Positions 19,673-29,686 of a DNA stretch of 64,000 nt are shown in pieces. Every line of letters begins with the position of its first letter. Position 1 is the stretch's first letter. A model generated the notes under the pieces. The model worked only from the letters and a program-made list of their open reading frames with translations, was not told the origin of the DNA and made no database searches. Origin of the DNA: Balanoglossus misakiensis (lineage: Eukaryota; Animalia; Hemichordata); assembly GCA_040954595.2 (NCBI GenBank), contig CM082597.2:3688014-3752013 (forward strand). The letters run 5' to 3'. A program made the translations under genes and the position numbers.

Positions 19673-22600
19673 ATGGCGAATCCGAAAATAACAGTCGACC
19701 CTACGGGAGAACCTAATTCCACACAAAACACTGGCAGCAGTGATGATACAGTTTCAATTTCAACCATTTCGAACATCCCGTGCTCATCACCGAGGCTGTG
19801 GCCTATTGAAGGGGTCGATAAAGTGATCTTCAACGGCGGTGCGCGTGATGGTTTCGCCGGAGAGAGCTCCGACTCGCCCCGCACTTGCAAGGCTCTCCTG
19901 AAAGAGTTCGGAGACAGGACAACGACGCACGGAGTTTCATACATTGTCGGCGCCGAGGGCAAAGTCACTTCAATTTTGTGGGGCACGATATTCCTGTTGG
20001 CCCTGGGGACTCTTGCCTTACAAGTGGGCCTGTTGGTCGATCAGTACTTCGATCGGAACGTCAATGTCGAGGTATGTGGTGTTAATAAGATAAATGCTGG
20101 ATATTTCATCATGTTTCAGGATTTTGAACAAGTAACTGCAGTAGACACACAATACTGAAACACAGCGAAAAGTTACATCTAATGGTGCTTTAGTGAACAA
20201 AACGTTATGCATATGCATCTAGTGAAAATGTTAAACGCATTACATAGCAGCTTTGAACATAAAATGTCGTTACGGATAACTAACCGGGTCTCTATCTCTG
20301 AAGGTCGAGATGGTACCCGCAACACAGCTACCGTTCCCCGCAGTCACGGTGTGCAACACGAACAAACTGCGCCGTTCGGCTTTAAGGGACACCTCCCACA
20401 GCGAGATCCTGGTTTTCGACAGTGATCTTGTTCGGCCATACTACAGTAAGTTTACATATACAAGTTGTTTACAGCTGTGCAAAACTTGAAAGAGAGTTAC
20501 GAAATCGTCGATAATGACATCCACAATCCCTTTATTGAATCAAATTCGCTGCAATAAATTATTCTGGGTAATAATCCTAAAAATACAGAATGAAAAAAAA
20601 ATCCCCAGTTTACCTTAATCAAAATGGTCAACGGAAAAATATTACAACCGTTGTCAGCAGACCTGCCAGAAAAACGAGGTTTTTGATTCATTTTCAGTCC
20701 CATGCTTTGAAGATGATTTTCAATGTGCCGACGGCAAACATTGCATTAAACCATACAACAAATGCGATGGAACTATTCATTGTCCCGATCACAGCGATGA
20801 AGAAAATTGCACTTATGGTATGTATGTTCAAGTTGATTACTACAATAGTGGACATGTATCATATTATGTAATTGACAATTTTAATTTTTAAGTTACATAT
20901 ACATGTAGTTACGTATATGTATGTATGTATGTATGTATGTATGTATGTATGCATGTATGTATGTATGTATGTATGTATGAATGTATGTATGTATGTATGT
21001 ATGTATGTATGTATGTATGTTAAATTTTATGACATTCCACATCCAAGGATACTGCGGCGAAGAACAGTTCAGATGTAAACGTGGGAGCGAAGCTGGTGTG
21101 TGTATTTCGGAGTATGAGGAATGTGATGGCAAATTTGACTGTTACGATGGAGAAGATGAAGATCGTTGTGGTAGGTTATCATTGTTTTTACTGCATCAAC
21201 ACGGAAACATAGTAAACCAATGTTTTTATCTGTTGTACATATATAAAGGCTCAACGATAAATTTGCGCATCCACTAATATCATAGGCGTTGGAGTGAAGG
21301 AGACCTTGTACGACGAAAAGAATTCAATACACTCTAATACACGCTTATATACGCTTCAAAAAGTAAATTAATAAATGGTGCCAACAAATTTAACGTATAT
21401 GATACGTTTAGACCATTTTCTCGCCCAGTTAGGGGGTTCATCCTCAAAAGGTAAATTCACTATTCAAATGCAAATTAAGTCTTTAAAGAGTCCCCATCTC
21501 TTCTGTCCAGGCGATACAATTGTCTTCCAGGAGAGGGCATGTAATTTTTCATTCACAGACTTACAGAATATGGTGTTTATATTTTAATTAGAATGTAAGG
21601 AAATTGAATTTCGATGTCTAATATCGAATGAGTGTATAAAGGACATCTCGGTTTGTGATGGTGAATTTGACTGTCGAGATGGAAGCGATGAAAGTGACTG
21701 CCGTATGTATACAACAATTATAACCATTCGCACGTTTTATTTGTGACTTTCTAGTTTTAGTGTCTATGTTCTCCATTGCTCTCGTATCATAATTTGGCAA
21801 ACAAAACAAATGAAAACAAAACATAACAAAATGACTGAGATGCATCACTAATGACATACATTCACTATCTGTCTGCCTGTGCCTGTCTTTTGTCTCAATG
21901 CCTACATCGCCATCTCTCTATCTGTCCCCTTTTTGACATTGCAATCTAATTCTCATTGTAGCAATGCCTTTGGAAAACCTATCACTACATAGACTAACTG
22001 AAGGAAGCGACAATTTCATAAACACCAAACTTGCAGTTGATGGGGACCAATTGACCTGTGCCACAACCATCACAAAAGAGGATGCATATTGGCAAGTCCA
22101 GCTGGACCGTCACTACACTATATATGCAGTCACAATAGAACACTTCGCAACACAAGATCGTAAGTTCTGTATTTATAGAGTAGGCAGAAAGATCAGAGTC
22201 ATAAAATATCTTGACTGATTTCTACAGTGATGGATTTGCTACGTTATATGATCAAATTCTGCAAAAGGGTCGAGTTATTGAAAATACTCCCACAGTAGAA
22301 GGGCAGAATATAAGGATTTAATTAAATTAGCACAATTGTGTACTTTGATATGAAACTTATTGCGGGTTACAGAATCAGCTCTAGAGGATGGTGTAATATA
22401 CATTGGTTCTGACAACGTCTACTCAAAGAATGACAGGTGTACACCCCAGCTACTGAGGACGGACGTCGCTCAGAGAGAGTTTACGGTAACATGCGACAAT
22501 CCTATCAAGGGAACGTTTGTCCAGGTTGTCAATGGTAACAATGAAGGTACCATGACTATCTGCGAGGTTGAAGTTTTAGGCATCGGTAAGTGTACAGTAC

Positions 22601-28600: not shown

Positions 28601-29686
28601 AACTCAAATATTTTAGCATTATTATAACTATGCATCAATTTTTCTGTAGGGAATACTCGTTTGCAATGTCACTATCTCATTCACTATGGCCTGCAGATGT
28701 ATATTTGGTAAGTAAATTGATCGCACAGGTTAATATGTTGTTTGTTAATAATCAACTGAATTGAATTTATAGATGCATATTCGGTAAACAAAATTACGTT
28801 GAATAATTTGTTGCGTCGTTCTAAGTAGCACAATTGGTTAATATTCAATTTCATTAACAGAAAAAGCTACTCAAGTCCATTCTTTGGAAAAACGCAAAAC
28901 TGAAAGATATTACTGATATGGTATCAGCAAGGTAAGTTAAAGTTTGAAGCTTAATCATATAGAACTCATACTCTGTATGTATGTATGTGTGTGTGTGTGT
29001 GTGTGTGTGTGTGTGTGTGTGTGTGTGTGTGTGTGTGTGTGTGTGTGTGTGTGTGTGTGTGTGTGTGTGTGTGTGTGTGTGTGTGTGTGTGTGTGTGTGT
29101 GTGTGTGTGTGTGTGTGTGTGTGTGTGTGTGTGTGTGTGTGTGTGTGTGTGTGTGTGTGTGTTCACGTTTGTGTGCTGATGAATTCATTGTTTGTTTTTT
29201 CTAACCAGGTCAAATTTGGTTCGGTTGGAGGTCTACTTTTCAAACTTGAACTATGAAGCGGTAAATGAGCGTCCTGCATATACGGTGAGCACGGTTTCGC
29301 CATTTTAGTTTGAGTGTTTAGATTTTCACGGTAAATGATTTATTGAGTCAGAGTTAAGGATTTTTCGGTGGTAGCCTCTTGACATTGCGCCGGCTTGTCG
29401 ATAAGAACCGTCGCCATAACAACTGGAAGGTGGTTACCTTGTTCTGGAGTAGCTATGTTTTTTGGTATCTTTAGGGGGAGTCCGGTTATCAAAAGCTACA
29501 GGTCTGGAATTAAATATTTTGTTCCTCTTGTTGTTTTATCTACAGTGGGAAGATCTGCTGAGTGACGTTGGAGGTACACTGGGACTCTACGTTGGAATTT
29601 CAATAATCTCAGTTTGCGAATTCATACACTTCATTTTTGAACTTTGTCGATCATTTAATGCAAAGAAATCTGTCAGGCCGTACTGA
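19673..29686 (+). CDS. DEG/ENaC (ASIC/ENaC family) channel subunit with inserted LDLa x3, F-type lectin x3, PAN/apple and LDLa domains; 23 coding exons
   Basis: TTTHG motif + TM1 (19673-20071); FPAVTVCN (20304-20445); inserted module exons 20698-25596; CSFAG (26350-26653); GNCYTFN (27025-27137); GLKMTL (27394-27557); Cys-rich thumb exons 27771-28516; WP exon 28650-28707; 28861-28931; LEVYF 29209-29284; TM2 [18 protein letters not shown] (29546-29686). All junctions GT-AG and in frame. Confidence 0.9.
20917..21019. repeat. (TATG)n microsatellite
   Basis: Visible tandem repeat in an intron. Confidence 0.95.
28986..29162. repeat. (GT)n microsatellite
   Basis: Visible pure dinucleotide run in an ENaC intron. 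Confidence 0.97.

Follow-up and report, generated by a model that had tools for sequence, protein, structure and literature searches.

The 64,000-nucleotide window analysed here (hemichordate Balanoglossus misakiensis, contig CM082597.2, positions 3,688,014 to 3,752,013) contains, at 19673-29686 on the forward strand, a predicted gene for a DEG/ENaC channel subunit whose finger region holds a cassette of LDLa, F-type lectin and PAN modules. By all sequence criteria run, the product is a complete DEG/ENaC subunit, not ENaC proper, and the middle one of its three F-type lectin domains (FTLDs), FTLD2, carries a complete fucose-binding triad. The reading preferred here, tentatively and short of being judged probable, is that FTLD2 would bind terminal fucose on mucus, matrix or cell-surface glycans, tether the channel, and gate or tune the pore via the finger.

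The gene model was predicted from DNA, with exon boundaries taken from candidate splice sites within positions 19000-30500 of the window. It comprises 23 exons joined by coordinate, all on the forward strand, with 22 introns of 111-753 bp that are all GT-AG (22/22), and a coding sequence of 3,807 nt that translates into 1,268 amino acids (aa), the sole stop being the terminal one at 29684-29686. Pfam was run exon by exon on 21 of the 23 exons. ASC was matched in exons 1, 2, 15, 16, 22 and 23, Ldl_recept_a (PF00057) in exons 3, 4, 5 and 13 (E 1e-9 to 3e-8), F5_F8-type domains in exons 6, 8 and 10, and PAN_1 in exon 12 (E 2e-9). Seven of the 21 exons gave no Pfam match on their own: 7, 9 and 11, which encode the second half of each lectin domain, 14, and the thumb exons 17, 18 and 19.

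The channel core satisfies the DEG/ENaC (Pfam ASC) layout, in which two transmembrane (TM) helices enclose a large ectodomain. Exon 1 (19673..20071, aa 1-133; Pfam ASC 1-54, E 2.8e-7) encodes the cytoplasmic N-terminus, the HG motif (aa 86-87) and TM1, which was located by hydropathy with a peak at sliding-window starts 98-106. Exon 2 (20304..20445, aa 134-180; Pfam ASC 59-89 and a match to chain 6ave) encodes FPAVTVCN (aa 144) and the start of the finger. The C-terminal part of the finger follows the cassette in exon 14 (26350..26653, aa 874-974), which encodes a segment with PPDW and then CSFAG (aa 965). The next block (27025..29284, aa 975-1222) starts with exons 15-18 (27025-27137, 27394-27557, 27771-27851 and 28028-28133) and ends with exons 19-22 (28444-28516, 28650-28707, 28861-28931 and 29209-29284); it is co-linear with proteins of Ptychodera flava (P. 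flava), whose corresponding part aligns to ASIC, ENaC and FaNaC chains, and contains GNCYTFN (aa 986), the beta-ball and palm, the knuckle, and a thumb with 10 Cys at aa 1080-1153, common to all three full-length relatives. Exon 23 (29546..29686, aa 1223-1268; Pfam ASC 427-455, E 6.7e-9) encodes TM2 with the GIS filter (aa 1239-1241), a short tail and the stop.

The GIS of the window protein fits the G/S-x-S definition of the TM2 filter of DEG/ENaC channels given in the available part of PMC8791634, and a C-terminal PY motif (PPxY) was not found in the short tail. The P. flava counterparts score 276-289 bits against the ASC profile (cut-off 23.6), and one of them, searched with its C-terminal half, reaches 110-149 bits against PDB chains of ASIC, ENaC, FaNaC and BASIC, near level across subfamilies. 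As no subfamily stands out in this score, the window protein is not assigned to any of these four. The motifs from which the sequence-only reading had recognised a complete channel (HG, TM1, a Cys-rich thumb and TM2 with GIS) are thus all present in the translated 1,268-aa frame.

The cassette corresponds to exons 3-13 (aa 181-873) and measures 693 aa, longer than the roughly 600 aa first proposed; the proposed module order (three LDLa modules, three FTLDs, PAN, LDLa) was confirmed by exon-wise Pfam. LDLa1-3 are encoded one per exon in exons 3-5 (20698-20817, 21048-21170 and 21592-21702; aa 181-298; PF00057), with six Cys each. They are followed by FTLD1 in exons 6-7 (21962-22159 and 22373-22585; aa 299-435), FTLD2 in exons 8-9 (22787-23008 and 23235-23447; aa 436-580) and FTLD3 in exons 10-11 (23921-24139 and 24480-24695; aa 581-725). 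Exon 12 (24807..25100, aa 726-823) encodes a linker and the PAN domain (Pfam PAN_1, E 2.2e-9), and exon 13 (25447..25596, aa 824-873) encodes LDLa4 (PF00057, E 3.5e-9) and is the final cassette exon, with a phase-1 donor.

Exon 2 aligns to residues 80-104 of ASIC1 (chain 6ave), and the C-terminal half of the P. flava counterpart aligns to ASIC1 from residue 161 on, as well as to ASIC2, ENaC, FaNaC and BASIC chains. These matches to flanking ASIC1 ranges place the insert in the finger interval, and the proposal of one channel subunit carrying the cassette at this site is supported by the reading frame, the co-linearity with P. flava and the ASIC1 alignments together. FPAVTVCN and the QC motif are 810 aa apart in the window protein, 816 and 819 aa in the P. 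flava proteins and 1,111 aa in an amphioxus protein; from the matched alignment ranges the gap would be about 75 aa in ASIC1. Peptide binding in FaNaC has been placed in the finger region. Exon 14, on the C-terminal side of the insert, had no Pfam match and no significant PDB match; its PPDW-containing segment is particular to this channel group, is partly shared with the amphioxus protein, and might serve as a marker by which the whole group could be found. Phase 1 is shared by all 12 introns at the borders of the cassette or within it, compared with 2 of the 10 others. Uniform phase-1 introns are the usual mark of exon shuffling, and the cassette may have originated from phase-1 exons shuffled into the intron after exon 2.

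Relatives were sought with short pieces of the gene, and their number is consequently a lower bound; the P. flava, Saccoglossus and amphioxus records are computed gene models, not transcript evidence. A search with exon 2 gave one match among eight candidates, P. flava XP_070548128.1 (P0001), a 256-aa protein in which LDLa1 directly follows the start of the channel. This short model is nearly identical to the start of one of the full-length P. flava proteins (P0003) and breaks off in LDLa2; located on the same contig, it could represent either a duplicate that is truncated or a copy made in assembly. A further search with residues 50-215 of P0001 led, as one of 127 candidates, to P. flava XP_070548202.1 (1,278 aa). 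The second full-length protein, XP_070548266.1/267.1 (1,265 aa), has two accessions of one locus with the same protein. Both full-length P. flava models carry ASC, four LDLa, F5/F8-type and PAN matches in Pfam. In end-to-end alignment they are 52% and 56% identical to the window protein and 52% identical to each other, and exon 2 has 70% identity to both. Across the three proteins, identical columns amount to 300/688 (44%) in the cassette, 157/379 (41%) in the C-terminal core and 53/107 (50%) in the N-terminal core.

More distant relatives came from a representative search with exon 1, whose 11 matches comprised the two known P. flava proteins, one amphioxus and one Saccoglossus protein, six short fragments resembling exon 1, and a TPR protein (P0005) that was set aside as spurious. 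The Saccoglossus record A0ABM0LU21, a 328-aa fragment named LRP2-like, has 41% identity over aa 74-298 and repeats the junction from channel to LDLa1. The Branchiostoma protein XP_078661500.1 (1,559 aa) has a core 37% identical to that of the window protein and, at the same site, an insert of about 1,040 aa with F5/8 C and kringle domains, in which no LDLa, FTLD-triad or PAN match was reported. A metagenome scan gave three loci from 159 pattern matches, of which only one (L001:2150-2700) resembles this channel group; it has exons 1 and 2 of a related channel, their likely introns agreeing in position and phase with the two here, and the coding part closes on the same PYY motif ahead of a likely phase-1 donor; the contig stops before the next exon. 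A homolog search with exon 14 matched none of 73 candidates, and the ESM Atlas gave no usable match. On these comparisons the window gene belongs to a wider group of channels that carry cassettes, and in invertebrate deuterostomes the finger seems to act as a slot that can be reused. The architecture is not a one-off: relatives carry either this cassette or a different one at the site.

The fucose site of F-type lectins is described in section 8 of PMC5712786, in the part available, as His...Arg-x-Asp-x4-Arg/Lys together with an h2DGx cation motif. In FTLD2 this corresponds to H478, R505-x-D507 and R512, with a vicinal Cys pair at 508-509 and the cation motif AVDGD. FTLD2 matches striped-bass FBP32 (3cqo) with a phmmer E of 4.5e-28 and the eel lectin (1k12) with 1.7e-15, and both alignments are ungapped from the His through Arg-x-Asp-Cys-Cys. 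The His-to-Arg spacing of 26 equals that of 1k12 and 3cqo, compared with the 24 written in the same part of PMC5712786. The triad and AVDGD of FTLD2 are both kept in 3/3 proteins (the window protein and the two full-length P. flava proteins), and none of the six FTLD1 and FTLD3 domains of these proteins has the triad. In the window protein, FTLD1 retains AVDGD and FTLD3 has AVDGN. FTLD1 and FTLD3 would accordingly be degenerate copies that largely keep the fold family and the cation motif and have lost the triad, and they may serve as spacers or bind something else. In its first half, FTLD2 is identical in the three proteins at 46/74 columns (62%), close to the conservation of the TM2 exon (21/35 columns), compared with 51/139 columns (37%) when the corresponding halves of FTLD1 and FTLD3 are taken together. 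From its residues, FTLD2 probably binds fucose.

A credible lectin site is supported by the complete triad of FTLD2 and its alignment to solved fucose lectins. The earlier count of nine lectin domains per trimer is not supported in that form: it presumes a homotrimer, and six of the nine domains would be without the triad. Nine working lectin sites were rejected on the ground that the triad occurs in FTLD2 only, and a homotrimer would be predicted to show three canonical fucose sites.

The LDLa modules are well preserved, with six Cys in 12/12 modules of the three proteins and Pfam scores above cut-off in 4/4 window exons. No other part of the protein is as conserved as LDLa1, in which 30/40 columns are identical in the three proteins, and by its position and conservation this module would pack on the finger. 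In 3/3 proteins, His replaces the acidic residue before its fifth Cys. Lysine-binding LDL-receptor repeats use a Trp two places before the fourth Cys, which is present in none of the four LDLa modules of the window protein. An AlphaFold2 prediction of P0003 residues 59-1254, made from a 7-row alignment, had a mean predicted local distance difference test score (pLDDT) of 39 and a predicted template modelling score (pTM) of 0.27, and was not used.

In the preferred reading, FTLD2 would bind fucosylated polymers such as mucus, matrix or egg coat, and FTLD1, FTLD3, PAN and the LDLa modules would form a Ca2+-stiffened stalk with LDLa1 as the likely finger contact. FTLD2 lies about 255 aa from its N-side anchor and about 290 aa from its C-side anchor, and at this distance from both, coupling is more likely to be mechanical than to follow from a local shape change on monosaccharide binding. 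A bound polymeric glycan would pull or cross-link the loops, and the resulting tension would shift the finger and thumb; the subunit may also form mixed trimers with paralogs. Control of a channel by a lectin domain has a precedent in the C-type lectin (CTL) domain of polycystin-1 (PMC7728438, in part), and matrix tethers on DEG/ENaC channels have one in the available part of PMC10148893. A bolder version, in which the group is a plug-in finger-slot family of invertebrate deuterostomes and fucosylated polymers (mucus, egg jelly, microbial or matrix) open the pore of a glycan-gated window member, is considered rather doubtful.

Several observations weigh against gating by a glycan tether. The tether model is itself described as unproven for MEC-4 and ENaC in the part of PMC10148893 used here, and the proposal of glycan or mechanical gating is drawn from sequence for every member of the group. 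The difference in conservation between FTLD2 and the other two FTLDs has a Fisher p of 0.0005, a value that overstates independence, the three sequences being related. The first half of FTLD2 has 81% identity between the two P. flava paralogs, which could partly reflect gene conversion, and one of these paralogs (P0002) keeps the triad without the vicinal cysteines. The different amphioxus cassette at the same site implies that the site tolerates many inserts, which would fit positioning or adhesion equally.

Positioning only is the main rival to tether gating: FTLD2 would hold the channel at a site such as cilia, an epithelium under mucus or the gamete surface, with the pore gated otherwise (by protons, ions or a peptide) or acting as a leak. 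Adhesion or clustering of this kind agrees with the distance in sequence between lectin site and core, with the different cassettes that relatives carry at the same site and with the need of MEC-4 for matrix proteins in its localisation (PMC10148893, in part). It fits less well with a cassette placed within the finger and not at a free end, given that the finger takes part in ASIC gating (PMC10148893 and PMC10507113, both in part), and with the fact that the most conserved module is LDLa1 at the junction, which recurs in Saccoglossus; it is considered unlikely, although with an appreciable chance. Sensing by the LDLa and PAN modules, which would respond to a secreted protein ligand, extracellular Ca2+ or the removal of an inhibitory cap by a protease, with fucose binding secondary (for example to the channel's own glycans), would account for LDLa modules at both ends of the cassette and for the conservation of LDLa1 out to Saccoglossus. 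It also has parallels in the regulation of ENaC by cleavage in the GRIP domain (available part of PMC8791634) and in the intramolecular lectin-glycan contact proposed for polycystins (available part of PMC7728438). The paired polybasic sites that the GRIP domain has in vertebrate-type ENaC were not found, however, and the interval is occupied by the cassette: no R-x-K/R-R site is common to the window protein (positions 229 and 689), P0002 (140, 765 and 1253) and P0003 (none). Release of the cassette by furin as in ENaC was rejected on this evidence, and the analogy with proteolytic gating of ENaC drawn in the sequence-only reading finds no support in these sequences. The missing Trp in all four LDLa modules and the His of LDLa1 likewise count against sensing by these modules, and the explanation appears improbable.

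The remaining two explanations concern the gene product itself. The cassette exons, with phase 1 at both ends, could be a splicing toolkit that yields many tissue isoforms, including a plain channel, with the full-length form minor. Of the 66 runs of exons that could be skipped within exons 3-13, 62 leave the frame intact and free of stops, and skipping all of these exons leaves an open 575-aa channel core. Both full-length P. flava models nevertheless include every module, the two accessions of one locus are identical, each FTLD is split over two exons so that most skips would break a domain, and an exon-shuffling origin alone explains the phase-1 symmetry; a role mainly as a toolkit is quite improbable. 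Alternatively, the module exons could be a separate gene nested in a long intron of an ordinary channel, the joined model being an artefact. The window model is predicted from DNA and its supporting records are computed, and pure LDLa-repeat exons lie 4 kb away in another gene. Against this, neither an in-frame Met nor a signal peptide precedes exon 3 within intron 2, the phase-1 splice sites at both ends of the cassette fit those of the channel exons, and two P. flava loci, the short third P. flava model and the Saccoglossus record are predicted with the same join. The cassette matches the channel core in identity and has thus been conserved to the same degree, which makes a mis-joined nested gene unlikely; the occurrence of these in-frame joins in three diverged loci likewise makes a joining artefact unlikely. 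Comparison thus favours a single protein over the separate nested transcript that the sequence-only reading had named as a risk, and a nested gene is now very improbable indeed. Tether gating through FTLD2 remains the preferred reading, at the tentative level given above.

The other genes of the window were noted in passing. A separate multi-exon gene at about 33340-39400 on the reverse strand has at least 13 LDLa motifs, one per exon (confirmed by Pfam in 2/2 exons tested), preceded by exons that we take to encode thyroglobulin type-1 and WAP domains. Its last LDLa exon appears to run into a stop and no transmembrane segment was seen, and the product is likely secreted. A link of the channel to this gene was rejected, the gene being on the opposite strand and beyond a claudin-like gene. 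PMP22/claudin-family genes flank the channel gene on both sides, at 11506-11871 (reverse), 17850-18170 (forward) and 30411-32600 (forward). Two long open reading frames (ORFs) of RING/B-box (TRIM-like) type lie on the reverse strand at 7398-8594 and 41766-42887, the second followed by an NHL-repeat ORF at 40761-41609 (reverse). Very similar inverted ORFs at 48566-48994 (reverse) and 51654-52172 (forward) have a signal-peptide-like start and a CCFSAC motif, with no Pfam match. The ORF at 45986-46363 (forward) has an internal repeat around FEGDILLT and no meaningful Pfam match; it resembles a duplicated astacin pro-region. A short ORF at 5945-6301 (reverse), with a signal-peptide-like stretch, basic sites and no Pfam match, is possibly a peptide precursor, and 59687-60004 (forward) is an exon of the complex I 49-kDa subunit (Pfam PF00346).

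Known inputs to DEG/ENaC gating are protons, peptides, proteases, bile acids and force. The force-tether model has been difficult to test, since separate matrix proteins make up the tether. In the window protein a candidate tether would be built into the subunit, with fucose as its predictable ligand and an off switch of three residues, making binding, tethering and gating separable by point mutation in one construct. Its natural paralogs and the amphioxus relative with another cassette at the same site would serve as ready-made swaps. If gating were to follow binding, the protein would be a channel operated by glycans and would offer a natural template for fitting sensors to a DEG/ENaC pore.

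The architecture is already in RefSeq, unannotated. No description of lectin or LDLa cassettes in DEG/ENaC channels was found in the titles and abstract openings of the open-access literature, a scope outside which supplements and subscription papers on FTLD architecture fall. Within the available portions of main text, the word "lectin" was not found in PMC10507113, PMC9234716, PMC10148893 and PMC4729200, and, in the portions available, the term "LDL" was not found in PMC10507113, PMC9234716 and PMC8791634; "channel" and "amiloride" were not found in the main text of the F-type lectin review PMC5712786. The accessible part of PMC10507113 mentions uncharacterised chordate and ambulacrarian groups, there without domain description.

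Compared with known systems, the window protein has in common with DEG/ENaC channels of solved structure (ASIC1/2, 6ave and 6l6p; ENaC alpha/beta/gamma, 6wth; FaNaC, 7yvb and 8on7; BASIC/ASIC5, 9mky) the HG motif, TM1, the 10-Cys thumb and the G-x-S filter, and differs from them in its FPAVTVCN-to-QC interval (810 aa compared with about 75 aa in ASIC1), the lack of a PY motif and the lack of conserved furin sites. The closest counterparts, P. flava XP_070548202.1 and XP_070548266.1/267.1, have the same modules in the same order and are all unannotated models. The Anguilla agglutinin (1k12) and Morone FBP32 (3cqo) resemble FTLD2 in the triad, vicinal Cys, h2DGx motif and His-to-Arg spacing; these lectins are soluble, whereas FTLD2 lies inside a channel ectodomain between two degenerate copies. 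Polycystin-1 and sea-urchin REJ offer an analogy in working only, as channel-complex subunits with their own lectin and LDL-A modules. They have an unrelated channel fold (TRPP), a C-type lectin and modules on a cleavable N-terminus, whereas the modules of the window protein include F-type lectins and lie in a doubly anchored loop, and REJ, GPS, PLAT or a TRP-type pore had no Pfam match in the scanned window exons or the P. flava proteins. In C. elegans, the DEG/ENaC pore of MEC-4/MEC-10 is proposed to be matrix-linked with MEC-1 and MEC-5 as well as MEC-9 (PMC10148893, in the part available). In that system and in glycan-tethered ENaC the tether consists of separate proteins or of the N-glycans of the channel, whereas in the window protein the candidate tether is part of the subunit.

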